This document shows, piece by piece, positions 3,398-37,598 of a DNA stretch of 64,000 nucleotides; the first letter of the stretch is position 1; each line of letters opens with the position of its first letter. Origin of the DNA: an uncultured Thermotogae bacterium (GTDB lineage: Bacteria > Bipolaricaulota > Bipolaricaulia > UBA7950 > UBA9294); NCBI GenBank assembly GCA_964547105.1, contig CAZJLO010000002.1, forward strand, positions 40,779-104,778, given 5' to 3'. The translations under genes were made by a program, and so were the position numbers. The notes under the pieces are model-generated. The model searched no databases. It was not told the origin of the DNA and was given only the letters and a program-made list of their open reading frames with translations.

Positions 3398-3400
3398 CGG

Positions 3401-8812: not shown

Positions 8813-10350
8813 TCGATGGGAAATGCAAGAGCATGGGAGATGAGAGGATGACGCACGACGACCTTTGGGCGGATTCTTCTAATCGAGGCAAAGAGGCGGC
8901 ACACCGAGAGCGTTCGGGTTCAGGTTCACCCTTAGAAGACGCCGAATCGGATCTGGACAGCGTGATCGTCGGCGGTCGGGTCCTGTGCCCGTTTGGCGAC
9001 GAACTCGAAGCGGCGGCGATCGGGATTCGCGACGGCCGAATCGCCGCGATCGGGAGCGACCGAGCGTTGCAGCGGCATGCGCGAGAGCGGATCGATGCAC
9101 GGGGTCTGTGGATTCTTCCCGGAGCGATCGATGGACATACCCACATGGAAGCGCCGGCCTTCGGCGCGCAATCCGCTGACACCTTCGAGTCCGGGACGGC
9201 CGCCGCCGCTGCCGGTGGCGTGACCTCGATCATCGATTTCACGCTGGGGATGGCGGGGGTTCCGCTTTGCCGACAGATCGATCTGAGGCAGCAGCAGGCG
9301 CAACGCGCCATGGTCGATGTCGGGATGCACGCCGAAATCGTGACGTCGGAGCAGGCGGAGATCGAGGAGATTCGTGGTGCCGTCGAAGCAGGCGTGAGCA
9401 GCTTCAAGCACTACATGGTCTATGGAGAGCGGGTCGACCATGGTACGCTTCTGAAGTCGTTTCGCGCCATTGCCGCTGTCGGAGCGACAGCGATGGTCCA
9501 TGCCGAGGATCAAGAGATCGTCGAGGCGGCGACAAGAGAGCTCCGAGGCCTTCCATCCGAAGGGATGATGTTACTTCCCCGCAGTCGGCCGGAGGCAAGC
9601 GAAGCCGTTGCCGTAGCGGTTCTCGTCTGCCTGGCGGAACTAACCCGGGCGCACGTCCATGTGGCACACGTGAGCACCGCAGCGGCGTTGCAGCTGATCG
9701 CGGCGGCGAAACGGCGCGGTGTGGCCATTTCCGCGGAGACCTGTCCCCACTACCTTCTTCTGAGCGAGGATGCGTACAAGACTGGAAGCGCACGTCAGTT
9801 CTCCGTTGTGCCACCACTACGTACGGCGGCTGACAGCGCCGCGTTGTGGGCCGCCCTTGCTTGCGGCGTAGTCGACACGGTGGCGACGGATCACTGCCCG
9901 TTTCCGCGAAGCGCGAAGGATGCGCCAGCTGATCCGCTTCTGGTTCCTTGCGGGTTCCCCGGGGTCGAAACGATGGTGCCTCTCCTCTTCTCCTTTGGTG
10001 TGAGGACGTCGCGCATCTCGTTGTCGAAGTTCGTCTCGTGCATCAGCGGCCGCCCGGCTCTGCTTCTTGGCCTGTCACCGGCCAAGGGATCGCTGCAGAT
10101 CGGCGCCGATGCCGATCTGATGCTGTTTGATCCCGATGCAGCGTGGACGATCAGAGCGGATGCCCTGCACATGAACATCGACTTCTCCCCGTTCGAAGGG
10201 CAGAGGATCACTGGGAAAGTGTGTTCGACCCTTGTGCGCGGTCGCCCCGTGTTCCGTGACGGAGAGATTCTCGCTGCACCGGAGTGGGGGCAGTTCCTTC
10301 GGCGCCGTTGCCCTGCGAGTTCCTGCGGCTGGCCATCTCGGGAAACCTAA
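8809..10350 (+). CDS. cyclic amidohydrolase (D-hydantoinase/dihydropyrimidinase family)
   Basis: 513 aa; LPGAIDGHTHM metal-binding motif, G.TS..DF, HVAHVST carboxylated-lysine region; true start may be an internal Met; stop overlaps convergent ribokinase stop by 3 nt. Confidence 0.85.
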   Translation: MIDGKCKSMGDERMTHDDLWADSSNRGKEAAHRERSGSGSPLEDAESDLDSVIVGGRVLCPFGDELEAAAIGIRDGRIAAIGSDRALQRHARERIDARGLWILPGAIDGHTHMEAPAFGAQSADTFESGTAAAAAGGVTSIIDFTLGMAGVPLCRQIDLRQQQAQRAMVDVGMHAEIVTSEQAEIEEIRGAVEAGVSSFKHYMVYGERVDHGTLLKSFRAIAAVGATAMVHAEDQEIVEAATRELRGLPSEGMMLLPRSRPEASEAVAVAVLVCLAELTRAHVHVAHVSTAAALQLIAAAKRRGVAISAETCPHYLLLSEDAYKTGSARQFSVVPPLRTAADSAALWAALACGVVDTVATDHCPFPRSAKDAPADPLLVPCGFPGVETMVPLLFSFGVRTSRISLSKFVSCISGRPALLLGLSPAKGSLQIGADADLMLFDPDAAWTIRADALHMNIDFSPFEGQRITGKVCSTLVRGRPVFRDGEILAAPEWGQFLRRRCPASSCGWPSRET

Positions 10351-11255
10351 CCCTGCGAACGGATGAAAGACTCGATGTCGTCGCGCGTAGGAAGCGCTGC
10401 TTGTGCGCCGGCGATGGTTGTCGTCAGGGCACCGACAATGTTCGCCCACTGGACCGCGTCACGCAGCGACTCCGAGGTGATCTTGCATGCCAACGCTGCG
10501 TTGAATGCGTCACCGGCGGCGGTTGTATCAACCGGATCGACTTGAGGAGGGGCGACACGCTCCAGTGTGGTCGAATCGACCGGCAGCACATACGCGCCTT
10601 CGGCGCCCGACTTGCATACGATACGTCGGACGCCCAGCCCCCGCATTCGTAGCATCGCCGGTCCCAGTTCCGCCATTCCCGTGATCGCCGCCAGCTCCCC
10701 CCGATTCGGCGTGAGCAGGTCGATTCGACCGAGTGGCAGAAGGGAGAGATCTTGTGCCGGGGCAGGATCAAGAATGACGAACGGACGATCGGGATCGAGC
10801 TTTGCCAGCAGGTAGGCGATCGACTCGATCGGCGTTTCTAGTTGGAGGAGGAGAACCTCCGCAGTGGCAACAACAGGAAGAACGCGATCGATGAATGAGC
10901 GATCGACGGAAGCGTTGGCCCCCGGTACATAAGCGATGGCATTTTCTCCGGAATCCTCCACCCAGATCGTTGCCGTCCCGGTCGGCTGTTCCGGGCTTCG
11001 CTCGACGCCGCACACGTCGACTCCAGCCTGCTTCAGACTATGGAGGATGTCGTCGCCAAACGGATCGATCCCGATCCGGCCGAAGAATGCGACGGCCCCG
11101 TCAGGAGCGAGCCGTGCCGCGGCCACTGCTTGGTTGGCGCCCTTTCCGCCTGGCGAGCGGTGCAGGCTTGTTCCCCGAATCGTCTCTCCCGGTCGAGGAA
11201 TGCGCGGAAGTCTCGTTGTTAAGTCCATATTGGCACTGCCCAGCACTGCGATCAC
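10347..11255 (-). CDS. rbsK: ribokinase / PfkB-family sugar kinase
   Basis: ORF-track ORF extends to 11369 but VIAVLGSANMDL with upstream GGAGAA SD suggests GTG start near 11255; GGKGANQA, TGAGD AF NAAL anion-hole/ATP motifs. Confidence 0.8.
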   Translation of the reverse strand: MIAVLGSANMDLTTRLPRIPRPGETIRGTSLHRSPGGKGANQAVAAARLAPDGAVAFFGRIGIDPFGDDILHSLKQAGVDVCGVERSPEQPTGTATIWVEDSGENAIAYVPGANASVDRSFIDRVLPVVATAEVLLLQLETPIESIAYLLAKLDPDRPFVILDPAPAQDLSLLPLGRIDLLTPNRGELAAITGMAELGPAMLRMRGLGVRRIVCKSGAEGAYVLPVDSTTLERVAPPQVDPVDTTAAGDAFNAALACKITSESLRDAVQWANIVGALTTTIAGAQAALPTRDDIESFIRSQG

Positions 11256-11286
11256 AGATGGTTCTCCTTCTGCTCGGTCCAAATTT

Positions 11287-12609
11287 CTAGTGCCGTGTGG
11301 GTCCCGGCGAACAGGCGTTCGGCGCGATGCGTTGTCCCCATGTCGATGTCCATTGGACAAGCGTCTCAAATGGAATGGTGTCGAAACCGATCACATAGGT
11401 TGGAAGCGTGTCGCCAAGCGGTGCGATCCATTGTTTCGGAAGCGCAGACGCACCAAGCGATGCGCCGACGAGAGCGCCGACCAGACCCGCTGTGCAGTCT
11501 GTGTCAAACCCGAGATGGAGCGTGCTCAAGAGAGACCGCTCGAAGTCCGCTTCGCCAAGGATCAGCCCGGCGACGGAACAGGCAAGACTGGGAATACAGT
11601 GAATCCAATGGTAGCGTCCAAACGTTCGTTCGATCCACTTGGCGACAGAGCGTTCATCCGGTGACCTCCGGCAACAATCGATGGTTGCCTCGACAGCCGC
11701 GATGAGGGGGCTGTCGGCCGGGATGTGGCTCAGTCCGGCAATCAGGGCATCCTCCACCGGCAATCCGGCTACGATGAGGGATGTGGTCGCAGCGACGTAG
11801 ACTTCGCCGTCCACGCCTTCGCGGTAGTGAGAAATGCAGGCGTCCCGGAAGGCGGATTCCGCTGCGAGCCGCGGCGAGGCGGGGGCGACCAATCCGTGGA
11901 TCTCGCCGCGCATCTGCGCCCCGACCCATGCTCCGCAGGGATTGCGGAACCACCGGCTCTCCGGAGGCATCACACCGGCCGAGATGTTGTCCAAGGCGGC
12001 TTGCTCCGCGGTGTATGCGAACGGCAGATGCGAAAGCCACTGGAGTGCCAGATCCCGACTTGTCCAGTGAATACCGAACTCATCAAGAACGTGGAGCAGC
12101 AAAGGAGCATAGGCTGTGTCATCATTGACGAGCTTTGGTGTGCCAACATACGACTGGATCCGTCCGTGCGTGTGAAGGATCTGCTCTCGTGACCACCCTT
12201 CCACCGGTTCGCCGAGCGCCGTGCCCGCGCACTTGCCCAACCACGAGCCAAGGATACGATCTTCGTAGACCCGGTGATCGATCGGGAGCGTCATGGGGGG
12301 GAGGGTGCCCGCCGGGAGCTCCTCTTGGTAGGCCTCCCATGTGGCCGGTTCTTGCCGGCGCACGTCCGCGAGGTGCTTGACGATCAGCTCGTTGATCTTG
12401 GCCATCACGACGAGGAGATCATCGTCTCGATCGGCCAGGTAGAGCCGCTCCGCCTCGTCAAGCAGCGGATGTGCCGCAGCCATATCGCATCCAAGGTTCT
12501 CCATCGCCCGAACGGATGCACGCGTAGGATAGATCGAGATCCCTGAGTCGCCAGCGGTCTCCCAGGCGTTACGGATCGAGTTCCGGCGAGACGATGATCT
12601 GTTCATGAC
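11287..12609 (-). CDS. ADP-ribosylglycohydrolase-family protein
   Basis: Likely start MNRSSS.. (ATG 12609, 11 nt after upstream stop); ARH/DraG-family sequence throughout (ILGSWLGKCAGTALGEPVEGW.., DDTAY, GFDTDCTAGLVGALVGA). Confidence 0.8.
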   Translation of the reverse strand, partial: VMNRSSSRRNSIRNAWETAGDSGISIYPTRASVRAMENLGCDMAAAHPLLDEAERLYLADRDDDLLVVMAKINELIVKHLADVRRQEPATWEAYQEELPAGTLPPMTLPIDHRVYEDRILGSWLGKCAGTALGEPVEGWSREQILHTHGRIQSYVGTPKLVNDDTAYAPLLLHVLDEFGIHWTSRDLALQWLSHLPFAYTAEQAALDNISAGVMPPESRWFRNPCGAWVGAQMRGEIHGLVAPASPRLAAESAFRDACISHYREGVDGEVYVAATTSLIVAGLPVEDALIAGLSHIPADSPLIAAVEATIDCCRRSPDERSVAKWIERTFGRYHWIHCIPSLACSVAGLILGEADFERSLLSTLHLGFDTDCTAGLVGALVGASLGASALPKQWIAPLGDTLPTYVIGFDTIPFETLVQWTSTWGQRIAPNACSPGPTRH

Positions 12610-12620
12610 GGTCTCCTTCG

Positions 12621-13769
12621 TCACAGGGCCGCCGCCAGCAGCTCGACGACATCGAGTACATCGACCGAGTGCGCGGTACCCGCCCGCTGCTTGGCATCGA
12701 GAAAGGCCGTCTGGCATGCCGGGCAGGCGCTGACGATCGTATCCGCTTCCGTTGCGAGCGCTTCGGCGAAGCGCTCGGCTTCGGTTGTGATCGACAGCTG
12801 TTCGTGGTCGGCACGTACGAACCCGCCGCTACCGCAGCAGAACGATTGCGGGCCGCTGCGCGGCATCTCTCGTCGCTTCACACCGGGGATGGCATCGATC
12901 AGCTGCCGCGGTGGACCAAGGATGCCCAGGGATCGTCCCAGCGTGCAGGGGTCGTGATAGGTGACAAGGCGGCTTTGCCTCTTTAGTCTCAATTCGCGGA
13001 ATGCGGGAAGCTGCGCGAGATACTCAGTGATGTGAACGGCGCGTACAGGGAGGGGGTGTCCTGTCAGCTTGACGTAGTCCTCGCGGAACGTCCGGAGACA
13101 TCCCGGGCAGGCGAAGACCAGCGTCTCGGCACCGGAACGCCGGATACGTTCCAGATTCTCCTCCAGAGCTTGGCGGGCTCGATCGGGCTGTCCCATCGCC
13201 AAGAAGGGATGGCCGCAGCAAGTCTCATCTTCAAGAACGGCAAAATCGACGCCACATGCCTCGAGCAGCTGATAGGTTCCGCGGGCAATTCCCCGCCGCA
13301 GCAGAGACGGGGTGCAACCGACGAAGAAGACGACATCGGCAGTGGTGCCGACACGTTGCGTGCCTGGTAGCCAGGCAAGTCGCTTCGCTTGCGGGCGCCC
13401 GTACGGATTTCCGTTGTCGGCTACGTCTCTTACCAACGATGCCCCTCCCGGAAGAAGGAGGTCGCGCTCGGCAAGATCGGCCTTCATCGCGGCGTAGATG
13501 TCGGTCAGGGAGAGGTACTTGAAGCACTGCGACTCGCACGCGCCACACTCGGTGCAGGCGAAGACACGCTCGGCGACGTCTTGGTTGTAGGAAACAACGC
13601 CGTCGAGCAGGGCGCGGGCGATGGCGATCTTGCCTCGGGCGCCGTAGGATTCCAGCCTATTGTCCGCGTAGGGCGGGCAGATCGATTGTCCGGCGCTTTC
13701 CATGTGGTCAAAGCAGAATCCGCATCGCAAGCAGCTGTAAATCTGGTCCTTGTAGGCTTCGAGGTTCAT
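12621..13769 (-). CDS. Fe-S oxidoreductase with CCG domains (GlcF/heterodisulfide-reductase-like)
   Basis: 382 aa; two 4Fe-4S Cys clusters (CLRCGFCFDHME ; CTECGACESQC) and two CCG motifs (CGSGG, CPGC); ATGA overlap with upstream gene. Confidence 0.75.
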   Translation of the reverse strand: MNLEAYKDQIYSCLRCGFCFDHMESAGQSICPPYADNRLESYGARGKIAIARALLDGVVSYNQDVAERVFACTECGACESQCFKYLSLTDIYAAMKADLAERDLLLPGGASLVRDVADNGNPYGRPQAKRLAWLPGTQRVGTTADVVFFVGCTPSLLRRGIARGTYQLLEACGVDFAVLEDETCCGHPFLAMGQPDRARQALEENLERIRRSGAETLVFACPGCLRTFREDYVKLTGHPLPVRAVHITEYLAQLPAFRELRLKRQSRLVTYHDPCTLGRSLGILGPPRQLIDAIPGVKRREMPRSGPQSFCCGSGGFVRADHEQLSITTEAERFAEALATEADTIVSACPACQTAFLDAKQRAGTAHSVDVLDVVELLAAAL

Positions 13770-15184
13770 CGGGTCTCCTCAGGGACGAGCAGTCCCGGAT
13801 TCAGGGTTCCGTGCGGATCGAGCGTTCGCTTCAGGGTTCGGAGGAGGTCATAGCTGGTTCCCAGCTTAGGCATGATGTGCGGTGCGACGCCGCCTCCAAG
13901 TCCGCCGGGGCTCATCCGGCCCTCGGTGAACATCCGTTCGGCGATCTCGCCTCGTAGCTTCATGCCATACTCCCAGGCGTCGTCCCGGCGCTCATCGTAG
14001 AGGGTATCGATCCACAGATACGCGCCGTTGCGGGAGAAGTACGCATCGACACCCTTGACGCGGATGCCGAATTGCTCGAAGGCTTGCTCTCGTTCATTCT
14101 TCATCTCACGGAACAGGGCGATCGCCTTCTTCAGCCCCTGGGAAGAGATGAAGCCGGCCACTTCTGGACAGAAGTACGGACGATGGCTGTAATAGGGGCC
14201 GGGAGCCGTGTTGCGCAACCAGGAGTACATGTGTTCCTGCCAGTAGTGCTTGGTCCCGTCGGCCGGACGTGCCCGGCCGGCATGCGAGAAGCAGATCGCT
14301 TCCGCCTCTCGAATCCGCTCTCTTGCAGCCGATGCTCGATCTCGGACGATCAGATGAAGGAACGCGTCTCCCTGCTCTCCGGTTGGCTTGGGCCCCCCGA
14401 ACAACCCGACGATAAACGTCGCAGCACCGCTTGCCTGGATGCCGGTCGCAGCATCGATGGCATCCTGATACTCATCGAAGGCAAAGAAACGGAATTCTTC
14501 CGCCTCGGGGATCCGGTGGATGCGATACGTTACGGATGTGATGATACCGAGGATGCCGTACGACCCAATGAACAACCCGGCAAGATCTGCTCCGTTTGCG
14601 TTTCTTTCGATCGGCTCGGACGCGGGATTGGACGCGGAACCCGTATGGATGACGGCACCCGACGGCAAGACGACCTCAAGAGAGAGAACATGATCTCCGG
14701 TCATGCCGTATTCGGTTGCGCCGTGCGGAGTGGCGTTAACGGCCACGGTCCCGCCGATCGTACACGAGAACAGCCCGCCGCCTCCGGGCACGCCGAGTTC
14801 CCAACCACTTCGGTGGAGCTGCCGATCGATGGCGTACCAAATCGCGCCGCACTGTGCGGTGACGTATCCGGCCTCAAGATCGATCTTCGTGATCCCGTTC
14901 ATGCGGGTTGTGTCGAGGACGACAACTCCTTCCTTGACGCCGCTTCCGAGGAACGTGGTTGCACGGCCACGGGTGTGGATCTGGAATCCGAGGTCATTCG
15001 CCAGCCGCACCAAGGAACCGATTTCTTCGGTGCTCCCGGGTTGGACGACCAGAGCGGGGATGCCTGCTCTGTCGGGCCCGCAATCGCGCGAGTAGCAAAC
15101 GCGATCCACGAGGCTGTCCGTCACATGCTCTGCTCCGACGATCTCTGCGAGCTTTCCGCCGAGATTCTCAAGCATATCGTTCAC
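13766..15184 (-). CDS. FAD-linked oxidase (GlcD/D-lactate dehydrogenase family)
   Basis: 472 aa; FAD-binding PCMH domain sequence (ALVVQPGSTEEIGSLVRLANDLGFQIHTRGRATTFLGSG), C-terminal FAD-oxidase domain. Confidence 0.8.
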   Translation of the reverse strand: MNDMLENLGGKLAEIVGAEHVTDSLVDRVCYSRDCGPDRAGIPALVVQPGSTEEIGSLVRLANDLGFQIHTRGRATTFLGSGVKEGVVVLDTTRMNGITKIDLEAGYVTAQCGAIWYAIDRQLHRSGWELGVPGGGGLFSCTIGGTVAVNATPHGATEYGMTGDHVLSLEVVLPSGAVIHTGSASNPASEPIERNANGADLAGLFIGSYGILGIITSVTYRIHRIPEAEEFRFFAFDEYQDAIDAATGIQASGAATFIVGLFGGPKPTGEQGDAFLHLIVRDRASAARERIREAEAICFSHAGRARPADGTKHYWQEHMYSWLRNTAPGPYYSHRPYFCPEVAGFISSQGLKKAIALFREMKNEREQAFEQFGIRVKGVDAYFSRNGAYLWIDTLYDERRDDAWEYGMKLRGEIAERMFTEGRMSPGGLGGGVAPHIMPKLGTSYDLLRTLKRTLDPHGTLNPGLLVPEETR

Positions 15185-16559
15185 CTACTTTCCTGATTTC
15201 TTGAAGAGCCAACGCTTCGTCAATGCAGGTGAGTTCTCGGTCTTGCATGACGAGCCGCCCGTTGATGATGGTTGTGATGACATCGTTCGCCTTGGCGCAG
15301 TACACCAGAGATGCGAACAGGTCGTCGATCCTGTTGGAGAACTGGAGTTGGTGAGCGCCCGTTGTGTCGAGAACGACCAGATCGGCGAGCTTTCCCGGAT
15401 CGATGACGCCGGCATCGATGCCGCATGCTTGGGCGCCGTTCTCCGTGGCGAAGCGGAAGATATCTCGAGCCGTGAGGACCGTCGGGTCTTGCTTGGCGAC
15501 CTTCTGAAGCAGAAGACCGCAGCGCATTTCCTCAAACGGATCGAGTAGATCATTGGATGCTGCACCGTCCGTTCCCAACGTGATCGGAACGCCGGCACGA
15601 TGGAGATCGACGATCGGTGCAATCCCGCTTCCGAGTTTCATGTTGCTTTTGGGGTTGTATGCCACGGCGACATCGCGTGCTGCAGCCAGCCGGATGTCTC
15701 CCTCGGTGAGGTGGACGCCGTGGACGGCAAGAAGCGGGCTCTCGAGAACGCCGAGGTTGTCCAGGCGTGCCAATGGAGTCATACCGACATCCTGCAGCGA
15801 TTGCTCGACCTCCCAAGCAGTCTCCGACACATGGGTTGTGATTCCGAGGTTGTGTACGTGGGCCTGCCTGCCAATCCACGTGAGCAGGTCGTCCGTGCAG
15901 GTAAACGGCGTCGAAGGCGCGAGCATCACGGTCGACAAGGGAGCAACCCTTGGCATTCGGTGCCATCGCTCGATCAGGGCCAACGTGTCGTCCTTTGTCT
16001 GCTCGCGCGAGACGCGAAGTTCTTCGGGAACCCACTTGTCCACCAAGCTCATCGCGGCAACGCCGCGGATCCCGATCTGGTGCCAGGCGTCGATCACGCC
16101 GTCGATATTCATATCCATGTCTACGAAGGAAGTGATGCCGCTGCGGATCATTTCGATGCAGCCAAGAAGCGACCAGAGCGAGGCGATCTCCGTTGCACCA
16201 TCGTTCCAGGCAGCGCGAAGGACGCGCTTGACAAATGGGAATGTCACATCATCGCACCATGCGACCAGCGACAGGTCGTCGCGACGTCCTTTGAGCATTG
16301 ACTGATAGAGGTGGGTGTGGCTGTTGACCAGCCCGGGGATGACCAGCCGGTTGCGACCGTCGATCACGACAAGGTCGTCATCGGGACCGTTGTCGGATCC
16401 GAACGGCCCTTCCCCGACCGAGGAAACCCGCGTGCCTTCAATCAACACATCGACGTCGTGCTCGATTCGGTCGGCATCGCGGATCAGCGTCGAGATGTTC
16501 CTGAGTAGGATTCTCGATTCCGGCTGTCTGCCGGCGGGCAATACGATCCGATCGGTCAT
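15168..16559 (-). CDS. COG0402-type amidohydrolase (cytosine/guanine/MTA-SAH deaminase-like)
   Basis: Start MTDRIVLP at 16559 (ATGA overlap with upstream stop); motifs PGLVNSHTHLYQS, HVSET, AYNPKSNMKLGSG, GTDGAASN. Confidence 0.85.
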   Translation of the reverse strand: MTDRIVLPAGRQPESRILLRNISTLIRDADRIEHDVDVLIEGTRVSSVGEGPFGSDNGPDDDLVVIDGRNRLVIPGLVNSHTHLYQSMLKGRRDDLSLVAWCDDVTFPFVKRVLRAAWNDGATEIASLWSLLGCIEMIRSGITSFVDMDMNIDGVIDAWHQIGIRGVAAMSLVDKWVPEELRVSREQTKDDTLALIERWHRMPRVAPLSTVMLAPSTPFTCTDDLLTWIGRQAHVHNLGITTHVSETAWEVEQSLQDVGMTPLARLDNLGVLESPLLAVHGVHLTEGDIRLAAARDVAVAYNPKSNMKLGSGIAPIVDLHRAGVPITLGTDGAASNDLLDPFEEMRCGLLLQKVAKQDPTVLTARDIFRFATENGAQACGIDAGVIDPGKLADLVVLDTTGAHQLQFSNRIDDLFASLVYCAKANDVITTIINGRLVMQDRELTCIDEALALQEIRKVGERYA

Positions 16560-24884: not shown

Positions 24885-24919
24885 CTACTCCTTACCTGGA
24901 CCGATACACCGGAGAAGAA

Positions 24920-30766: not shown

Positions 30767-30788
30767 CGACAACCTCCCGGTTTCCTGT

Positions 30789-32519
30789 TTACGATTCATC
30801 ATCAGATTCCTCATCCAGCTCGACAAGGAACGACTCAGCGTACGCCTTGATCGGGTCCGTCGATGTCGGGCGGAACAAGCCCATCAGTGCAAGTCGATCG
30901 TTTCTCGCGACCGGAAACGGGACATTCGCGACAATGATTGTCTTGGTCCCGTCGTTCACGGAGGCGTTTGCCCCCATCACCGCACGGACCGTCAGCGAGG
31001 GAGCGGCAACGATACGCCCCTGGAAAACCTCGGGATGATCGATGATCTCCGCAAGCGAGATCTCAGGATTGCAGATGTAGTAGTCTTGCTCGGCGTCGCG
31101 CCGTGAACCGTCGGACATGCTGAATGAGACGTGCAGTGTGTGGTAGCCGTTGGCTAGGGTCGAAACATTCAACTCGGAGCTGGCTGCGGACCACATGCCG
31201 CACGAGTTTGCTCCGACCGGAACGAAAGGATTGTCATCCCAAGCAAGTTCTGCCGAAACCGCCTCGCCCCACACCCGAACTTCGAGGTTGTCAATCCATG
31301 AGAGGACCGCTGCCTGGGGGAAGGCGAACTCGGCTGTATCTTCGCCGATGGTCCGCCAGATGCTATCGATCAGCCCGCGGCGAATCTGATAGACCCGGTA
31401 ACCGAACGATCGTCCATCGGCGGCCGGTCCTTCCCACCACGACCCGCAGACCGCGCCGGATGTGAGTTCCAAGTACGGCTCCGTTTGCAGTTCGAAGTTC
31501 AGGTGCCAATGTCCGGTGATAAGAGCGGCGATGCCGGCGTTGGCGAGAATCGTCTTGACTTCACCCATGATCTCATTCTTGGCCCAGTTCGAACTCGGCT
31601 CGTGGCAGAACACGAGGATCGGCTGTTGCCTGCCGGCTGATTCGAGATCGGCCCTCAGCCAAGTAAGTTGTCGCTCGGAGACTGTGTACGAGAGACTTGT
31701 TCCGGTGAGCGTGTGAGGGTCGAGGACGATGCAGTGAACGCCCTCGCAATCAAACGCGTAGTACGTAGGTCCAAAGGACTGCTCAAAGATGGCTCGATCG
31801 ATTGCCGGATCACGAACGATCTCGTGGTTCCCGACGACGGCGCGGGCTGGAGCATCAAGCGAAGGAACAAGCTGTTCTGCGATGTAGCTTGTCCACGCCT
31901 CGACCAGACCAAGCTCCGGCGTCTTCGAGTCGGCGACTTGATCTCCCGTCAGAATGACGAAATCGGGCGCGACGGAGTTGATCTCAGCAGCCATTGCATC
32001 AAGGATCCCTTGTGGCTGAACTGCCATCGCACGATCGTAGAAAGCTTCACGAAACTCCTCTGGAGTGGCCGCAAAGTGGATGTCGGATGCTTGCACGAAC
32101 GTAAGAATGCCATCGCTATCGGGCACCACTTCCAGCCCGAAGTCAATCGTCATGAGGCCTTCTCTCCCGAGGACGGGAGCATACCAGTCACCGCTGGCTT
32201 GATAGCCGGTGGGAACGGTGATGAATGCGAACCGGGACGACTCGTCCAGCGAGAGTTCGAAGCCTCCTTGTCCGTCGGTTCGGACGATGATCGCTCCATC
32301 ACTAACGGCAATGTCGCCGACACCCGTTTCATCGGCGTCCCGAAGCCGGTTGCCGTTCGCGTCGATGAAGACCGTTCCGCGACACGAGTCTGGGTTCGCC
32401 GAGCCAGCCAGTCCTCCGACGAGCAGCACGAAAAGCACGGTGAGGACAAGGCAGCAGCGCTTCGCGCCGCGGGGACGGAAGCCGATCCCGCCGTGGGTCA
32501 AGGGCCAAGCCTTGGTCAT
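30789..32519 (-). CDS. secreted calcineurin-like metallophosphoesterase
   Basis: 576 aa; signal/TM N-terminus, metallophosphatase motifs (QASDIHF, GDQVAD, VVGNHE, GHWH), acidic C-terminal tail LDEESDDES. Confidence 0.75.
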   Translation of the reverse strand: MTKAWPLTHGGIGFRPRGAKRCCLVLTVLFVLLVGGLAGSANPDSCRGTVFIDANGNRLRDADETGVGDIAVSDGAIIVRTDGQGGFELSLDESSRFAFITVPTGYQASGDWYAPVLGREGLMTIDFGLEVVPDSDGILTFVQASDIHFAATPEEFREAFYDRAMAVQPQGILDAMAAEINSVAPDFVILTGDQVADSKTPELGLVEAWTSYIAEQLVPSLDAPARAVVGNHEIVRDPAIDRAIFEQSFGPTYYAFDCEGVHCIVLDPHTLTGTSLSYTVSERQLTWLRADLESAGRQQPILVFCHEPSSNWAKNEIMGEVKTILANAGIAALITGHWHLNFELQTEPYLELTSGAVCGSWWEGPAADGRSFGYRVYQIRRGLIDSIWRTIGEDTAEFAFPQAAVLSWIDNLEVRVWGEAVSAELAWDDNPFVPVGANSCGMWSAASSELNVSTLANGYHTLHVSFSMSDGSRRDAEQDYYICNPEISLAEIIDHPEVFQGRIVAAPSLTVRAVMGANASVNDGTKTIIVANVPFPVARNDRLALMGLFRPTSTDPIKAYAESFLVELDEESDDES

Positions 32520-32652: not shown

Positions 32653-33480
32653 TCACTTCACTCCTCCTTGTGTGAGTCCGGCAACAAGATAGCGCTGTCC
32701 GAGCATGAATAGGAGCAGCGCCGGAAGCGTCGACAGCAGCGCCGCCGCGCTCAGGGGACCCCAGCGAACCACCCCGCTCATCCCGACGAACCTCGACAGG
32801 AAAACGGGCAGCGTGAACACGCTCTCACTCCGCGTGACGATGAGGGCGAAGAAAAACTCGTTCCACGACAACAGAAAGGAGAACGTGCCTACGGCGAGAA
32901 TTCCCGGCACGGCCAGCGGGAGAACAACCTGGGTCAGAGCCCGAAGGCGATTGCAGCCGTCAATGAGCGCTGCCTCTTCAAGTGCCGTTGGAATTCGATC
33001 GAAGTAGCCTTTGAGAAGCCAGATGCTGAACGGGATGCTGAAGCTTGTGTGCATGATCATCAAGCCAAACTGTGAGTTGAGCAGTCCGAAGATGCGAAAG
33101 ATCGTGAACATCCCAAGCACCATGATGATCCCCGGGAAAGCCTGCGTGGCAAGAAGCCATGTGGAAAACAGGCGTTTCCCCCGGAAACGGAATCTCGACA
33201 TGGCATATCCAGCCGGGGCGGTGACGACAATCGTGAGCAGCACTGTCACACCGGCAACCACAAAGCTGTTGCGGAAGTTCACGGCGAACGTGCTTTCATG
33301 GAAGATTTCCGCGAAGTTCGCCGAAGTGACGTTGTGAGGCAGCGCTACCGGGTTCCGGGTGATATCTGCTTCCGTGCGGATGGAGTTCAAGAACATCAGC
33401 AGCAGCGGGAATGTCAGCAGTACCACATAGAGCAGCGCAACGGCATGGAGCAGAATGCGTTTGGGTCGCGAGAGCCTCAT
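32653..33480 (-). CDS. carbohydrate ABC transporter permease (CUT1, MalG-type), second system
   Basis: 275 aa paralog of 25987-26814 (ALEEAALIDGCNRLRALTQVVLP). Confidence 0.85.
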   Translation of the reverse strand: MRLSRPKRILLHAVALLYVVLLTFPLLLMFLNSIRTEADITRNPVALPHNVTSANFAEIFHESTFAVNFRNSFVVAGVTVLLTIVVTAPAGYAMSRFRFRGKRLFSTWLLATQAFPGIIMVLGMFTIFRIFGLLNSQFGLMIMHTSFSIPFSIWLLKGYFDRIPTALEEAALIDGCNRLRALTQVVLPLAVPGILAVGTFSFLLSWNEFFFALIVTRSESVFTLPVFLSRFVGMSGVVRWGPLSAAALLSTLPALLLFMLGQRYLVAGLTQGGVK

Positions 33481-34364
33481 TCCAGCACCTCACGTATGTA
33501 CACCAAGATGAGAAGGATCAGGCAGACCATGATGACAAGGCCGATTGCGGCAGCATAGCCCATCTGGTAGTAGAAGAAGCCGTTCTGGTAGGCATACATC
33601 GGCAGGGTGAGCGATGCATTCCCCGGCCCGCCGCGCGTCAGAATGTACACGATGTCAAACATGTTGAAGGTCCAGATGCTCATCAGTGTCACGACGATCA
33701 GCACGACGCGCTTGATCACCGGCAATGTGATTCTGAAAGTCGTCTGCAGGAAACTCGCGCCATCGATTGCCGCGGCTTCATACAGCGACCCCTCGACGGA
33801 TTGCAGGCCGGCAAGAAGCATCACCGTCATGAACGGAATGTTCATCCAGACGTTGGCGATGATGCAGGCCCAGAGAGCGACGCTCGGATCGAGCAGCCAC
33901 GCCGGAGGATTGGACACGCCGAGAGCGCCCAACAGAACATTCAGCGGGCCTTCATTGGCGAGCATGTAGCGCCAAGTCAGCGCAACGACAACCGGAGGTG
34001 TCGCCCACGGGATCAGCATGAGGCTGCGGAACACCCGGCGCCCGACAAGTTCGCGCGAGTTCAAGACAAGTGCAAGGATGATTGCAAGAACGAATTGAGC
34101 CGACACGCACGTCACAACCCAAATCAGACTGTTGGCGAACGCTTTGACGAAGAGTTCATCGTGGAACATTCGGGCAAAATTCCCGAAGCCGGTGAAGGAG
34201 AAGCTCTGCGACATGAGCTGGTAGGAGTGCAAGGAGCGGATGATCCCGTTGATGAACGGATAGAGGTTGATCGCCGCCATGATCAGCAGGGTGGGGATGA
34301 GGAACGGGAGAGCCCGCCGCTCCTCACGGAACCGTTCTGCCGCGTGTGCTTCTGCGCCCAACAA
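33477..34364 (-). CDS. carbohydrate ABC transporter permease (CUT1, MalF-type), second system
   Basis: 295 aa paralog of 26811-27704 (LYEAAAIDGASFLQTTFRITLP). Confidence 0.85.
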   Translation of the reverse strand: MLGAEAHAAERFREERRALPFLIPTLLIMAAINLYPFINGIIRSLHSYQLMSQSFSFTGFGNFARMFHDELFVKAFANSLIWVVTCVSAQFVLAIILALVLNSRELVGRRVFRSLMLIPWATPPVVVALTWRYMLANEGPLNVLLGALGVSNPPAWLLDPSVALWACIIANVWMNIPFMTVMLLAGLQSVEGSLYEAAAIDGASFLQTTFRITLPVIKRVVLIVVTLMSIWTFNMFDIVYILTRGGPGNASLTLPMYAYQNGFFYYQMGYAAAIGLVIMVCLILLILVYIREVLE

Positions 34365-34438
34365 GTCTCCCTTCGCCGCTCCACTTCCAGTCAGGCCAGC
34401 CGTTCGTTTCTCGGCGCGGCCCGGCCGAAGCCCGAGCC

Positions 34439-35725
34439 CTACTGAAGCCCTATGCTTCGCAGGTAGGCATTGCCGCTCTCTTCAATCGATGTCATCGCTT
34501 CGTCGAAAGCCTTGTTGCCGAGCATGACGTTCTCCAATTCGGGGACGATCACCCGCATGTCGAATGCGATAATCGTCGGCATTCGCGGAAGAACGTCGAC
34601 CGCGAAGGGAAGCCAGCTCTTCGCCAGATCCCACTGGTAGGTCACCTCGCCGAATCGTGGGTCGCCTTGAGCGGACGTCCTTGCGGGGAAGATCCAATCG
34701 GGGTAGGCAATCTCGACGACATTCGCCGCGCTGGAGATGTAGTCGAGAAACTGTGCCGCCTCCGCCTTATGTTCGGACCCGGCCCAGATGCCGTGTGCCT
34801 GAGGCCCGCCGGACGTGATATTCTGCACCGGCCCCTCAAGGTGGAAGATACCCCAGTCCACATCCTCCCACTGCGCGAGAATGCGACGATTCCAGCAGCC
34901 ATAGATGATCATTGCGTAGCGATCTTTCGAGAACCCGCTCATCAAGTAGGTGTAGTCGCTGCTGATTGCGTCAGGGGGCATGACCTGCCACTCCGTCACC
35001 AGATCGCAGTAGAAGCGCAGCGCTTCCCTTGCCGCCGGGTCGACGCTGACCGACCACGAGCCATCATTGTTGCGGTGCACGATCTGGCCGCCATTCTGCG
35101 CCACGAGCATCCACGGGAACTTCTCCATCACCGAGGCAAGAAGTCCCCAGGTCAGCACAGCTCCATCAGAATCGCGCACAGTCAACTGCTGTGCGTAGTC
35201 GACGATCTGCTGCCAGGTGACCGAAGCATTCTCCGGCAACACGATGCCCGCATCGTTGAACATCCGACGGTTGTAGAATACGGCGTGGGTTTCCACCAGG
35301 AACGGCGAGCCATAGATTTCGCCATCGTAATCGCTGGCGCTATCCCACATCCACTGGGGGATATCGCTCAACAGCTCGTCATCGAGATATGGTGTCAGCG
35401 GCTCGGCAAACCCAAGGACACCATACTCGTAGCACATGACCGCATCCTGATGGAAGATGTCGGGAGCATCGCCGCCGAGGAAGCTTGTCAGCAAGAACTC
35501 ATTCGCGGATGCCCACGCTCCCCAGACAATCTCCACCTGGATGTCGGGATGGGAATCATTCCACTCGGCGACGACATCTCGCACTGCCCGCACGACCCCC
35601 GGCTGCCACGCCAAGCTGTAGTACTGCAGCCGAACCGGGCTGGCCATTGCCGCCGACGAGCACAAAACGCCGAGCAAGAACAACCCGACAACCAACTTGC
35701 CAAGACCAGTCCATCTTGCATTCAT
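34439..35725 (-). CDS. ABC transporter extracellular solute-binding protein (family 1), second system
   Basis: 428 aa; signal peptide MNARWTGLGKLVVGLFLLGVLCSSAAMA; paralog of 29495-30766. Confidence 0.8.
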   Translation of the reverse strand: MNARWTGLGKLVVGLFLLGVLCSSAAMASPVRLQYYSLAWQPGVVRAVRDVVAEWNDSHPDIQVEIVWGAWASANEFLLTSFLGGDAPDIFHQDAVMCYEYGVLGFAEPLTPYLDDELLSDIPQWMWDSASDYDGEIYGSPFLVETHAVFYNRRMFNDAGIVLPENASVTWQQIVDYAQQLTVRDSDGAVLTWGLLASVMEKFPWMLVAQNGGQIVHRNNDGSWSVSVDPAAREALRFYCDLVTEWQVMPPDAISSDYTYLMSGFSKDRYAMIIYGCWNRRILAQWEDVDWGIFHLEGPVQNITSGGPQAHGIWAGSEHKAEAAQFLDYISSAANVVEIAYPDWIFPARTSAQGDPRFGEVTYQWDLAKSWLPFAVDVLPRMPTIIAFDMRVIVPELENVMLGNKAFDEAMTSIEESGNAYLRSIGLQ

Positions 35726-35832
35726 CGTTCGGTCCTCCCTCGCGAGTCTTCCTGCAGAACGAACTCCGTCGACTCCCTCCGTTGGTCGGCGTCTGCCGCT
35801 GACGCGCTATGTTCTCCCTCGGCGATTCGCTG

Positions 35833-36594
35833 CTAGCCATCCGCCACTCGGTCGCGATCGCCATGGACGACGCCCACCAAATCTTCGACCACTGCACGAG
35901 GAGAAGCCGCCTCGAACACGTTTCGCCCGAAAGCGATTCCAGCTGCTCCGTGTTGGATAGCGTCGGCGGCGATGTTCACCGGATCGGATGCCTTGGCCCC
36001 TCCGGCGGCCAAGAACGGGACACCGCACCCGCCGATGATGGTTGCATCGGCGCCCGTTCCGGTTGTGTACGCCTTGACGACGTCCGCGCCCAGCTCGTAG
36101 GCGACGCGAGCGGCCACGGCAATCCACTCCGCATCCCCGAATCGCTCCGGCGCGGCGGGAAGCATCTCCGCGATCAGGGGAATCGCGTGCTGGGAGCAAT
36201 CCTCGGCCAGTTGAGCAAGAAGCGTCAGCGATGCTGCTTCGCCCGGTCCCCCGACGAACCCCATCGCGATGACGGCATCCGCTCCGAGGTAGGCAGCCTG
36301 TCGTACACTGCAAATCTTCCGGTGGTAGTCGAAGATGGTGTTCTTCTCAGTGCTTGCCCCGGTGACCCGGACAATCAGCGCACAGCGCCCTGCGTAGACC
36401 GCTGCGCAATCTCGTGCTGCTCCGGGGTTGAGAATGATGCCATCAGCGCCGCCATCGACAACTTCGCCAACGATCGCAGGCATGGACACGAGTCCCTGAA
36501 TCGGGCCTTTGAATTGTGCGTGGTCAAGGGCGACAACCATCGCCCGGCCATCCCCGCGAAACAATCTTCGCATGTGGATCAATTTTCCCGTCAT
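35833..36594 (-). CDS. class I (DhnA/FbaB/LsrF-type) aldolase
   Basis: Start MTGKLIHMRRLF; DeoC/LacD-family TIM-barrel aldolase sequence with Schiff-base lysine region (ADVVKAYTTG). Confidence 0.7.
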   Translation of the reverse strand: MTGKLIHMRRLFRGDGRAMVVALDHAQFKGPIQGLVSMPAIVGEVVDGGADGIILNPGAARDCAAVYAGRCALIVRVTGASTEKNTIFDYHRKICSVRQAAYLGADAVIAMGFVGGPGEAASLTLLAQLAEDCSQHAIPLIAEMLPAAPERFGDAEWIAVAARVAYELGADVVKAYTTGTGADATIIGGCGVPFLAAGGAKASDPVNIAADAIQHGAAGIAFGRNVFEAASPRAVVEDLVGVVHGDRDRVADG

Positions 36595-37598
36595 GTGGTG
36601 GTTCCTTTCATCGAGCGGCATGTCCCGCCACGGATCAGCATGGTCGGCACGATGACGTTCTCATCGGCCCCGTTGAGGAGGAGACGTGTTGCTTGTTGAC
36701 CGATCTGGTACACCGGCACTTCCACCGTGGTGAGCTCGGGGCGAAGAAATGTCGCATACGGCACGTGCGGCACATGATCAAAGCCGGCAACGGCGAGATC
36801 TCCGGGAATGGAAAGGCCGCGCTCCTCTGCGGCACGGAGAATCCCGAACGCCATCAGATCGTTCCCGGCCAGGATTGCCTGGACGTCATCGTGATCAAGA
36901 ATTTCGCTTCCGCACTCATAGCCCGATTCATACGTGAAATCGCCACGGTGTAGTGCGACCGGCTTGATTTCGCAGGAATCGAGGGCCTGGATGAAACCGG
37001 CGAGTCGATCATCTGAGGTGCTCACGCCTTCTGGCCCGGCGATGTATGCGATGCGGCGATACCCAAGTTCGAGCACGTAGTTGGCGAGTTCGCAACTTGC
37101 GTCACGGTTGTCGGCTTCCACGCACGCTAGGTGGGCGACGCGGCGATCGGGAACCAGAATACGGGTGCCTCGGTCGATCAGACGTTGAATCGCCGCCATG
37201 TTGGGTGTCGCCGTCGGTACGAGCAGCACACCGTCCACCCCTTCCGACAGGAGAATGTCAAGGTAGCGCAATTCCCGCTCCGGTTGCTGATCGCTGTCGC
37301 AGATCAATGTGCTGAACCCACGGTCGAATGCCTCCGCTTCGATGCCGCGTACCAGAAGAGCGAAGTAGAGGTTGGAGATATCGGGAACGAGAACGCCGAG
37401 CATCTGCGAGCGCTGCCGGCGAAGCTGCTGTGCCGCCTTGACGGGCGTATAGCAGAGAGCCTCCATTGCGTCGACCACGCGCTGCTTGGTTTCCGGACGC
37501 ATGTGGTCCGCCTCGCGTCCGTTGATCACCCGAGAAACGGTGCTTGGAGATACATTTGCCTTCTGGGCAACCTCTCGAATCGTGATTCGCTGTTTCAT
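36591..37598 (-). CDS. LacI-family transcriptional regulator
   Basis: 335 aa; N-terminal HTH (ITIREVAQKANVSPSTVSRVING), periplasmic-binding-fold effector domain; heads the long minus-strand array. Confidence 0.9.
   Translation of the reverse strand: MKQRITIREVAQKANVSPSTVSRVINGREADHMRPETKQRVVDAMEALCYTPVKAAQQLRRQRSQMLGVLVPDISNLYFALLVRGIEAEAFDRGFSTLICDSDQQPERELRYLDILLSEGVDGVLLVPTATPNMAAIQRLIDRGTRILVPDRRVAHLACVEADNRDASCELANYVLELGYRRIAYIAGPEGVSTSDDRLAGFIQALDSCEIKPVALHRGDFTYESGYECGSEILDHDDVQAILAGNDLMAFGILRAAEERGLSIPGDLAVAGFDHVPHVPYATFLRPELTTVEVPVYQIGQQATRLLLNGADENVIVPTMLIRGGTCRSMKGTTT

Follow-up and report, generated by a model that had tools for sequence, protein, structure and literature searches.

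The window, the whole stretch of DNA that was analysed, comprises 64,000 nucleotides of contig CAZJLO010000002.1 in the assembly of an uncultured bacterium (GCA_964547105.1) of the Bipolaricaulota lineage. Its central feature is an unbroken array of 23 genes at 10347-37598, encoded on the minus strand throughout and headed by a LacI-family repressor gene, in which importers and sugar-type enzymes stand together with amidohydrolases, redox enzymes and relatives of Ftr and Mch. Bipolaricaulota and Atribacterota are abundant uncultured fermenters and acetogens of anoxic sediments and the subsurface, and their substrates have long been an open question. The window was annotated from a table of open reading frames (ORFs), from translations with inspection of the start sites, from Pfam scans and from NCBIfam scores, which were read against the curated cut-offs. 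Related loci and contigs, designated L### where they have to be told apart, were compared with the window proteins; they came from homologues of the Ftr-like protein, from a scan of GTDB species representatives and from a metagenome scan with a distant Ftr-like alignment, and their neighbourhoods were mapped by tblastn/blastp against the window proteins. The Ftr-like and Mch-like proteins were assigned to clades from distance trees. L009 belongs to the Atribacterota, L049-L053 and L055 to the Bacillota (L053 is a metagenome-assembled genome (MAG) of the Clostridiaceae), and L054 is Escherichia coli K-12. L031, L044 and L045 represent one Acetothermia/Bipolaricaulota lineage; L013/L041-43, L032 and L048 are distant, differently organised clusters.

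Listed from the promoter side, the array contains the following elements, with Pfam families in brackets:

37600-37655, minus strand: promoter-like site (TTGACA, 17 nt, TAGGGT), then the LacI-type palindromic operator GGAAAACGATTTCC (37600-37613), immediately 5' of the LacI start codon
36591-37598, minus strand: LacI-family repressor, first gene (LacI, Peripla_BP_1/3)
35833-36594, minus strand: DhnA/DeoC-LacD class I aldolase (DeoC, E 1e-29), overlapping the LacI gene by 4 nt
32653-35725, minus strand: CUT1 importer set 1, optional, with solute-binding protein (SBP) SBP1 (34439-35725) and permeases PermA1 (33477-34364) and PermB1 (32653-33480)
30789-32519, minus strand: signal-anchored metallophosphoesterase (MetallophosN, Metallophos, MetallophosC), with a hydrophobic N-terminal segment in the translation
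29495-30766, minus strand: CUT1 solute-binding protein SBP2 (SBP_bac_1), present in every Bipolaricaulota version of the operon
28854-29366, minus strand: small secreted protein of 170 aa with a partial sulfite-oxidase-type Oxidored_molyb domain (E 1.7e-5, profile positions 62-147 of 169)
27694-28746, minus strand: Zn-dependent alcohol/polyol dehydrogenase (ADH_N, ADH_zinc_N)
25987-27704, minus strand: CUT1 permeases PermA2 (26811-27704) and PermB2 (25987-26814) (BPD_transp_1), 66-77% identical to their orthologues
24920-25990, minus strand: kinase of the diacylglycerol kinase (DAGK)/NAD-kinase fold (DAGK_cat and NAD_kinase, both weakly), with a GGDGT motif at residue 99
23970-24881, minus strand: Ftr-like protein of a non-canonical clade (FTR, FTR_C)
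22896-23891, minus strand: Mch-like protein of clade MCH-A (MCH)
16556-22903, minus strand: movable cassette of four genes, namely the aldehyde oxidoreductases (AORs) AOR1 (21005-22903) and AOR2 (19053-21008), the amidohydrolase AmiS (17689-19056) and a PreA-like flavin/2x[4Fe-4S] reductase (16556-17692)
15168-16559, minus strand: AmiC, a COG0402 amidohydrolase (Amidohydro_1, 224 bits)
12621-15175, minus strand: GlcD/GlcF-like dehydrogenase made up of an FAD_binding_4 flavoprotein (13766-15175) and a CCG/2x[4Fe-4S]-type partner (12621-13769)
11287-12606, minus strand: ADP-ribosylglycohydrolase-family (ARH) protein (ADP_ribosyl_GH, E 1e-47, residues 120-391) with an N-terminal extension of about 120 aa
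10347-11255, minus strand: PfkB kinase, last gene (PfkB)

The initial annotation of the window had described a LacI-headed, single-direction array of 25 genes running from 37598 down to 10347 with many stop/start overlaps. The ORF listing and Pfam bear out the direction and the gene-family calls, LacI is the first gene, and 12 of the 22 junctions carry an overlap (-4, -8 or -11 nt). The count has to be lowered to 23, since no gap exceeds 133 nt and there is no space for further genes. Coding density is 97.5%, and terminator-like hairpins within the array are rarer than in shuffled sequence.

The repressor combines a helix-turn-helix with a periplasmic-binding fold, and a CG-centred palindrome lies downstream of the promoter-like site, the layout of LacI/GalR-type operons. 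The degenerate 14-mer GGAAAWCGWTTTCC, which describes the operator, has a single occurrence in the window, and each of eight related loci (L011, L020, L021, L023, L024, L025, L027 and L033) likewise contains it exactly once, a short distance upstream of LacI. The LacI proteins of these eight loci are only 54-64% identical, so that the preservation of the operator is strong comparative evidence for autoregulation, with GGAAAACGATTTCC as the predicted operator. Among NCBIfam models the repressor scores highest with RbsR (219) and CytR (217), followed by the generic PRK09526 (190), CcpA (183), PurR (173) and UriR (162), all below cut-off; the RbsR/CytR likeness is a weak hint that the effector may be a pentose or nucleoside.

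Conservation of the array goes far beyond chance. Its genes are found in the same order on about 20 other contigs, with protein identities of 42-77%, and the succession Ftr-Mch-AOR-AOR-amidohydrolase-PreA is kept as a block in at least eight species-level genomes, which disposes of the chance juxtaposition that the initial annotation had named as its refutation. Most of the contigs are labelled Bipolaricaulota, Bipolaricaulis or Acetothermia, and some belong to MAGs labelled otherwise. A protein identical to the Ftr-like one occurs on metagenome scaffolds of one sample series, and its nearest named relatives are from Candidatus Bipolaricaulota MAGs (87% identity). Three arrangements were observed. 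The order DAGK-FTR-MCH-AOR1-AOR2-AmiS-PreA-AmiC-FAD4-CCG-ARH-PfkB is shared by the window and L011, L021, L022, L025, L027, L030 and L033. The order FTR-MCH-AmiC-FAD4-CCG-ARH-PfkB-AOR1-AOR2 is found in L012, L020, L026 and L046, where the available sequence ends within or just after AOR2. L007, L008 and L016 have no AOR module within the stretches covered. AOR1-AOR2-AmiS-PreA is thus a movable accessory cassette. Importer set 1 is likewise an optional part of the operon: in L007 and L012 its permease pair is preceded by an SBP, and L011 and L020-L027 lack the set. That SBP is 74% identical to SBP1 in L012, and in L007 its best match is SBP2 (45%).

The same partners meet again in the distant clusters L013/L041-43, L048 and L032, where Ftr-like proteins, Mch paralogues and AmiC are once more combined with ARH and PfkB proteins (both in L013, ARH in L048), and where a DeoC aldolase, a purple-acid-type phosphoesterase, an Oxidored_molyb-like protein, an alcohol dehydrogenase, DUF2193 and Peptidase_M19 are also encoded. 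This recurrence argues that the sugar-type and the heterocycle-type genes belong together. Peptidase_M19 recurs in L013/L043, L040 and L048.

The Ftr-like protein matches PF01913 and PF02741 over its full length and so has the two-lobe FTR fold. It reaches 160.3 with NF002554 (cut-off 297) and 158.9 with TIGR03119 (cut-off 292.6), and forms a clade apart from canonical Ftr. Only 96 clusters among 5.8 billion proteins make up this small family; identity is at least 45% within the clade and drops abruptly to about 33% towards genuine Ftr. Of 81 near-invariant canonical columns 37 are kept and 17 have switched to another conserved residue. The Glu aligned with Glu246 of Archaeoglobus fulgidus, which we take to be catalytic from structural work on the Methanopyrus kandleri enzyme, is invariant. 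DUF2193, described as conserved in archaea, is encoded directly downstream of the Ftr-like gene and followed by a PfkB kinase gene in L013 (5003-6472) and L032 (2695-4164), and lies directly upstream of it in L048 (7953-9452).

Its neighbour, the Mch-like protein, scores 123.5 with TIGR03120 (cut-off 228.8). The whole Mch superfamily counts only 344 representatives among 1.84 billion proteins. In the distance tree, MCH-A is a separate clade made up of the Bipolaricaulota proteins and one paralogue each from the Atribacterota (L009) and the Bacillota clusters (L049-L053). R179 and E182 of the window protein, equivalent to Arg183 and Glu186 in M. kandleri/A. fulgidus numbering and presumably the catalytic pair, do not vary among 20 MCH-A members. 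The clade has retained 15 of the 23 canonical columns, has lost the canonical Trp97 and has Asp in place of Asn227. Canonical Ftr and Mch and the methylotroph Fhc (1FTR, 1M5H, 1QLM, 4GVQ, 6S6Y) share the folds of the window proteins, both Pfam domains being matched over their full length. In the tetrahydromethanopterin (H4MPT) pathway Ftr and Mch act consecutively in methanogenesis, and their homologues in the window are encoded adjacently with their catalytic residues retained. The window genes differ from the canonical ones by being embedded in a transporter/amidohydrolase operon, by their separate clades, by the 17 switched Ftr columns and by the loss of Trp97. Pfam finds no Fwd/Fhc, Mtd, Mer or Fae gene in the operon. 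Retained catalytic residues together with altered pocket columns are the signature of paralogues that would keep the ancestral chemistry and act on another substrate. The initial annotation had placed Ftr and Mch under C1 handling; the families are right, but the separate clades and the scores, roughly half of the family cut-offs, set the two proteins apart from ordinary C1 enzymes.

MCH-A and AmiC adjoin, or have only a transporter between them, in all cluster types (Bipolaricaulota, Atribacterota L009 and Bacillota L049-L053 and L055). They form the invariant core, to which the non-canonical Ftr clade is added in Bipolaricaulota. A natural substitution bears on the role of MCH-A. In L031 (8598-9980), L044 (8589-10004) and L045 (1-957) a hydantoinase/dihydropyrimidinase-like gene stands beside the Ftr-like gene, between it and the gene of the NAD-kinase-like kinase, while Mch is missing and the operon is otherwise syntenic. 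The replacement of Mch by a hydantoinase-type gene argues for hydrolytic ring opening by MCH-A. In L051 (14553-20812; JGI 3300042277, Ga0451660_000217), whose cluster type matches that of Bacillota-labelled MAGs, a canonical H4MPT/methanofuran module adjoins the MCH-A/AmiC cluster: Ftr/FhcD (383), FwdA/FhcA (401) and a second Mch (240.3) exceed the NCBIfam cut-offs, and FhcC-like, FhcB-remnant, MptN-like ligase and hydantoinase-like genes accompany them. This layout suggests that a released formyl group may flow into a pterin-bound C1 route. H4MPT-linked genes have been described in the literature from several bacterial phyla including Firmicutes; they are not known from the catabolic context of MCH-A and AmiC.

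AmiC is nearest to a chlorohydrolase/deaminase model (347, cut-off 609) and, in the PDB, to the methylthioadenosine (MTA)/S-adenosylhomocysteine deaminase 4F0R (E 8e-58). The metal residues and HxxE are present, and the catalytic HxH / HxxE / D are kept. Its orthogroup spans phyla, with an invariant HTH(L/M)(Y/W)Q in the window and in L009, L049, L051 and L053. This HxHxxQ motif, which is presumably that of guanine/8-oxoguanine-type (2-amino-4-oxo) deaminases, is found in E. coli guanine deaminase and in the 3HPA protein, not the HxHSAM of MTA/adenosine deaminases. An assignment as adenosine/MTA deaminase is unsupported, since the Glu of WPxE is lacking and HxHxxQ stands in place of HxHSAM.

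The second COG0402-type enzyme, AmiS, was considered as an orthologue of SsnA and rejected: it is 26% identical to E. coli SsnA (101 bits), no nearer than AmiC, and scores 216 with an SsnA model (cut-off 444) and 201 with TIGR03314 (IPR017700; cut-off 455.5). The PreA-like reductase carries PF01180 and two CxxCxxCxxxC motifs, is nearest to PyrD (140, cut-off 269) and overlaps the amidohydrolase genes on both sides by 4 nt. The AmiS/PreA-like pair is also found beside MCH-A in the Clostridiaceae locus L053, translationally coupled there as in the window. AOR1 and AOR2 are tandem paralogues (39% identity) with AFOR_N and AFOR_C domains (Pfam, 194-434 bits) and both CxxCxxxC and LGVCK motifs, which places them in the AOR family. 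The initial annotation had AORs replacing molybdenum hydroxylases, a hypothetical role; AOR2 looks like a standard aldehyde oxidoreductase (E 1e-127 with 1AOR). A role as BamB-type ring reductases was dismissed, AOR2 scoring 430.7 bits with 1AOR against 200.5 with BamB. The motif with the fourth Cys is shared with the Pyrococcus-type tungsten AOR (1AOR), and the window differs in having a tandem pair inside a cassette of heterocycle-degradation type.

A hydantoinase-like enzyme, AmiH, lies next to the operon. The initial annotation had reported a convergent pair of acyl-CoA ligase and hydantoinase, and Pfam and NCBIfam place this pair at 7151-10350:

8809-10350, plus strand: hydantoinase/dihydropyrimidinase-like amidohydrolase AmiH, convergent to the operon and loosely associated with it
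7151-8812: AMP-ligase/acyl-CoA ligase, which with AmiH makes up the pair convergent to the operon (Pfam)

AmiH reaches 375.8 with the D-hydantoinase model (cut-off 393.25) and shares 37% identity with HyuA of E. coli. It is encoded outside the operon; homologues adjoin the operon in L007 and L046, and in L031, L044 and L045 they take the place of MCH within it.

The remaining genes belong to uptake and to sugar or hydroxyacid metabolism. There are two full CUT1 sets, each of an SBP_bac_1 protein and two BPD_transp_1 permeases, which are paralogous to one another (SBPs 49%, PermA 55% and PermB 60% identical). The PDB relatives of SBP2 are distant and all bind sugars. Pfam detects no ATPase gene for these importers in the operon, as is common for CUT1 systems. 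The metallophosphoesterase matches cyclic-nucleotide phosphodiesterase models of NCBIfam weakly. Orthologues of the Oxidored_molyb-like protein are encoded in nearly all related operons, and one of 36% identity lies beside an ABC transporter in the distant L048; no Cys is visible where the metal-ligand stretch is expected. For the Zn-dependent dehydrogenase the nearest NCBIfam models are threonine 3-dehydrogenase and scyllo-inosose 3-dehydrogenase, well below cut-off, and for the aldolase it is ADH synthase (187, cut-off 241). The gene of the DAGK/NAD-kinase-like kinase is invariably immediately upstream of the Ftr-like gene. The FAD_binding_4 protein is, like the set-2 permeases, among the best-conserved of the operon (72-76% identity). 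Its PDB neighbours, D-lactate, glycolate and D-2-hydroxyglutarate dehydrogenases, are matched in the FAD domain only, its score with the GlcD equivalog is 124.9 (cut-off 567.9), and FAD-oxidase_C is matched by the last 20 residues only. TfrB, LdhH, GlpC and GlcF are the nearest models of its CCG/Fe-S partner. The PfkB kinase comes close to the cut-off of ribokinase TIGR02152 (265.4, cut-off 299.65), which is by far its best model.

Three further known systems invite comparison. The reductive uric-acid/2,8-dioxopurine pathway, known from E. coli, Clostridioides difficile and Clostridium sporogenes, was reconstituted in two preprints of 2025 (bioRxiv 10.1101/2025.05.19.654654, 10.1101/2025.04.24.650524). 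XdhD makes 2,8-dioxopurine, which is dearomatised by YgfK or by the clostridial PF01180 FMN/Fe-S enzyme UacX. As experiments showed, the dearomatisation proceeds only in concert with hydrolysis by SsnA, a COG0402 enzyme; HyuA then opens the hydantoin, and YgeW/UacY, YgeY and YgeX complete the pathway. The initial annotation had noted a partial resemblance to this E. coli purine cluster, and this is supported: a PF01180 reductase translationally coupled to a COG0402 amidohydrolase, with the hydantoinase-like AmiH nearby, mirrors UacX/SsnA/HyuA, AmiS not being an SsnA orthologue, and the anaerobic logic of reducing the ring first and hydrolysing it afterwards is shared. Unlike that cluster, the window has no Mo/Se hydroxylase, carbamoyltransferase/carbamate kinase, M20 peptidase or diaminopropionate lyase, and its hydantoinase gene stands apart from the operon, on the other strand; the window adds the Mch-like and Ftr-like proteins, two tungsten-type AORs, the ARH hydrolase and a sugar/polyol branch. 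No XdhD/DOPDH Mo(Se) hydroxylase, YgeW/UacY, YgeY or YgeX is encoded by the 23 operon genes or the scanned flanking ORFs. The relation is apparently one of mechanism, not of membership.

Clostridial purine fermentation has a concept in common with what is proposed below: the amidine carbon is passed to a pterin carrier by a transferase and a cyclo-(deaminase/hydrolase) and is conserved as C1 unit and ATP. There, formiminoglycine and tetrahydrofolate (THF) give formimino-THF, which is converted through methenyl-THF and formyl-THF to formate and ATP. The clostridial steps use FTCD-type and FolD/FchA enzymes with THF, whereas the candidates in the window are Ftr/Mch paralogues with a putative carrier. 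The E. coli locus fbaB/yegT-yegU-yegV-(yegW/GgaR), whose function is still unknown (PMC10819704), brings together a DhnA aldolase, an ARH-family protein, a PfkB kinase, a transporter and a repressor, as the window does. It differs in its nucleoside-type major facilitator transporter and GntR regulator and in having no amidohydrolases, Ftr/Mch or AORs. The enzyme-family trio of fbaB/yegTUV in E. coli K-12 is the one that occupies the two ends of the window operon (10347-12606 and 35833-36594). A polysaccharide utilisation locus was also considered and rejected, since Pfam finds no glycoside hydrolase among the operon genes.

We regard it as somewhat probable, by analogy with these enzyme families, that the array is a single LacI-repressed operon for the uptake and complete catabolism of a ribose- or ribityl-bearing N-heterocycle. 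Combined catabolism of sugar/ribose and N-heterocycle is the only reading with a use for every gene. As the substrate, a phosphorylated, ribosyl- or ribityl-substituted fused N-heterocycle, either nucleotide-like or like a pteridine/flavin cofactor, would be the best reading. The initial annotation had been more specific in proposing nucleosides, purines or pyrimidines; the N-heterocycle class stands, while a nucleoside, purine or pyrimidine is not established and the transporters of sister clusters are nearer to RfuA than to PnrA.

From the enzyme families we infer the substrates and the order of the steps as follows. The anchored metallophosphoesterase would remove or cleave phosphate esters outside the cell, and the product would be taken up by one or two CUT1 importers, perhaps with the help of the Oxidored_molyb-like secreted protein. 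AmiC would deaminate a ring of the amino-oxo-pyrimidine type. A carbon left unhydroxylated between two ring nitrogens would on reduction yield an imidazoline, not a hydantoin. Since an imidazoline is the group that Mch hydrolyses in methenyl-H4MPT, the product would be N-formyl and not N-carbamoyl, and N-formyl is the group of Ftr. MCH-A is accordingly a candidate for the hydrolysis of a cyclic amidine (of imidazoline/imidazolinium type) to an N-formyl amine, following Mch chemistry, and the Ftr-like enzyme may transfer the formyl group to a putative pterin C1 carrier, or off the substrate. By this route the amidine carbon would enter the formate/Wood-Ljungdahl pool and would not be hydroxylated. 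The remaining pyrimidine-type ring would be reductively dearomatised and opened by the PreA-like reductase and AmiS, with AmiH, in parallel to UacX/YgfK, SsnA and HyuA. On the sugar side, the ARH-family hydrolase may release ribose from a ribosyl-N or ribosyl-O linkage for phosphorylation by the ribokinase-like PfkB protein, and the Zn-dependent dehydrogenase, the NAD-kinase/DAGK-like kinase and the DhnA aldolase could turn a polyol or sugar chain into dihydroxyacetone phosphate and an aldehyde. With ferredoxin, the two tungsten-type AORs would turn aldehydes into acids, and a 2-hydroxyacid would be oxidised by the GlcD/GlcF-like dehydrogenase.

Several points weigh against this scheme. No enzyme reaches the trusted cut-off of a characterised equivalog, so each step rests on analogy. 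The gene set was mapped onto methanopterin, FAD/riboflavin, F420, alpha-ribazole/cobamide and NAD with a partial fit each time, and purine nucleosides, methanopterin, flavins/F420 and alpha-ribazole map onto it almost equally well; the mapping thus constrains the substrate weakly and serves to generate hypotheses only. Systems with CUT1 transporters and a LacI regulator typically handle sugars rather than nucleosides or cofactors. Rfam at gathering thresholds detects no riboswitch or other ligand-specific element in the window and seven sister loci. The formyl carrier is putative, a single transcript of 23 genes is predicted from the spacing, and the AOR/PreA cassette, which is not part of the operon in some relatives, may serve a side branch.

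Within the class of ribose- or ribityl-bearing N-heterocycles, two candidates for the substrate stand out, and we hold them about equally possible, each on its own well short of even chances; what is left falls to another molecule of the same class or to a mosaic array. The first is a purine/pyrimidine nucleoside or nucleotide from extracellular nucleic acids, degraded by a hydroxylase-poor reductive variant. The phosphoesterase would make nucleosides, AmiC would deaminate guanine- or adenine-type rings, and PreA, AmiS and AmiH would act as in the 2,8-dioxopurine pathway; with C8 and/or C2 unoxidised, an imidazoline would arise whose breakdown calls for an Mch-like cyclohydrolase with an Ftr-like deformylase in place of hydantoinase and decarbamoylases, and the AORs could serve for ring hydroxylation or for the oxidation of aldehydes further down the pathway. 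Of such substrates, nucleic acids are the most plentiful in sediments. The UacX/SsnA/HyuA-like trio, the swap of Mch for a hydantoinase in L031, L044 and L045, the position of AmiC within the nucleoside/guanine/8-oxoguanine deaminase part of COG0402 and the repressor, nearest to RbsR and CytR and with PurR/UriR among its higher matches, all point this way, as do the ribokinase-like and ARH genes and the external phosphoesterase. Against it, the operon encodes no purine nucleoside phosphorylase/hydrolase, xanthine dehydrogenase, YgeW/UacY, YgeY or YgeX, AmiS is not an SsnA orthologue, the Zn-dependent dehydrogenase, NAD-kinase-like kinase, aldolase and GlcD/F-like enzyme have no obvious role, and CUT1 importers are not known as nucleoside transporters.

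The transporters of sister clusters speak on both sides. That their SBPs belong to the Bmp family favours a nucleoside, yet these proteins are much nearer to the T. pallidum riboflavin binder RfuA (4IIL; 101-147 bits) than to the nucleoside binder PnrA (38-49 bits). In the SBP of L009 the stacking residues Tyr157 and Trp189 of RfuA are kept, Tyr27 is replaced by Phe and Asn82 by Thr. Riboflavin-type (RibU-type) S components of energy-coupling factor (ECF) transporters in L049 and L055 likewise tell against a purine and for a flavin-like compound. The RfuA-like SBPs and ECF S components lie at 14740-15765 in L009, 8194-9300 in L050, 4181-4909 in L049 and 19422-20534 in L055.

The second candidate, proposed as tentatively as the first, is a pteridine- or flavin-type cofactor with a ribityl or ribosyl chain and a phosphodiester, set free from dead cells, such as methanopterin/sarcinapterin, FAD/FMN or F420. 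Methanopterin accommodates almost the whole gene set, with a candidate enzyme for each moiety, and a large part of the set also fits FAD, F420 or alpha-ribazole. In the methanopterin mapping, the phosphodiester would be the target of the metallophosphoesterase, 2-hydroxyglutarate that of the GlcD/F-like enzyme and the alpha-ribofuranosyl group that of ARH and ribokinase. Dehydrogenase, kinase and aldolase would convert the ribityl chain to an aldehyde for the AORs, AmiC would act on the 2-aminopterin and PreA/AmiS/AmiH on the pterin rings, and the N5/N10 C1 unit or the pyrazine C=N would fall to the Mch- and Ftr-like paralogues, recruited from ancestors that bound methanopterin. In favour of such a cofactor, Ftr and Mch are known solely as H4MPT/methanofuran enzymes of pterin-binding ancestry, MCH-A keeps 15 of the 23 canonical columns, canonical Mch/Fhc/MptN-like genes adjoin in L051, and the secreted protein with its remnant of a pterin-cofactor-binding domain is kept even in the distant L048. 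The HxHxxQ motif of AmiC, in the meaning assumed above, fits as well, and polyol dehydrogenase, kinase, aldolase, AORs and hydroxyacid dehydrogenase would all be needed for the ribityl chain and for dicarbonyl or aldehyde fragments. A ribokinase is reportedly part of a riboflavin catabolic cluster in Microbacterium, which would be a precedent. This candidate has the chemical mapping as its sole basis, however, and the same exercise fits several molecules. Cofactors are scarce in comparison with nucleic acids and unlikely targets for a phylum-wide 27-kb operon, and the CUT1 SBPs give no hint of pterins or flavins. The (S)-2-hydroxyglutarate of methanopterin does not match the D-specificity of GlcD-type enzymes; flavins have no formyl-level carbon for Mch/Ftr chemistry. 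No literature was found on catabolism by Ftr/Mch paralogues.

It is improbable that the array is a mosaic, be it a sugar/polyol operon fused by chance with redox and amidohydrolase genes or a setting in which Ftr and Mch serve the normal H4MPT C1 (formaldehyde/formate) pathway: LacI, CUT1, aldolase and kinase are indeed often grouped in carbohydrate operons, neither the AOR cassette nor importer set 1 is constant and H4MPT genes are known from several bacterial phyla, but the sugar- and heterocycle-type genes stay together, ordered and overlapping, on about 20 contigs at about 50% identity, glycoside hydrolases and Fwd/Fhc, Mtd, Mer and Fae are missing from the operon, ARH, aldolase, alcohol dehydrogenase and Oxidored_molyb-like proteins recur with Ftr-like/MCH/AmiC in the independently organised L013 and L048, and the Ftr-like and MCH-A proteins stay below the equivalog cut-offs in clades of their own.

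Returning to the operon as a route for a ribose- or ribityl-bearing N-heterocycle, a bolder proposal may be made, which we consider possible and no better than that: the Ftr-like and MCH-A proteins would define a new breakdown of fused N-heterocycles, free of O2 and of Mo hydroxylases, in which ring carbons are kept as C1 units for acetogenesis or ATP. By analogy with the canonical enzymes, deamination and/or reduction would come first, the Mch paralogue would then open the cyclic amidine and the Ftr paralogue would pass the formyl group to a pterin. If so, paralogues of two enzymes otherwise linked with methanogenesis and methylotrophy, Ftr and Mch, would have a catabolic role for the first time, and the reductive purine pathway would be extended to a hydroxylase-free, formyl-conserving variant. 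Functions would also come into view for the orphan families ARH and PfkB (compare E. coli yegUV), the NAD-kinase-like kinase, the truncated Oxidored_molyb protein and DUF2193. In its most far-reaching form the proposal takes methanopterin or a related archaeal cofactor as the substrate, and fermenters of methanogenic sediments would then recycle the cofactors of methanogens with enzymes borrowed from methanogenesis. A phylum-wide, tightly regulated operon of 23 genes is a likely marker of one of the main substrates of Bipolaricaulota. No description of the operon or cluster, or of catabolic Ftr/Mch paralogues, was found in the literature that could be searched. With its operator, two binding proteins and small soluble enzymes, the operon lends itself to direct tests of the hypothesis in vitro, without culturing the host.

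Further genes were noted in the flanks. The initial annotation had placed a ribose ABC/DeoC operon at the left of the window; a CUT2-type sugar ABC system (ATPase, permease and an SBP nearest to the rhizopine type) is indeed present at 673-6787, together with an FGGY kinase nearest to xylulokinase, while no DeoC gene was found there. Divergent from the LacI promoter region, a PatB-family C-S lyase is encoded at 37798-38970 on the plus strand (NCBIfam 456, cut-off 340). Farther to the right, 48000-56300 and 60288-61640 hold a run of ORFs of 250-450 aa without any Pfam match, and a protein of 753 aa combining an adenylate/guanylate-cyclase with tetratricopeptide repeats (TPR) is encoded at 57354-59615.

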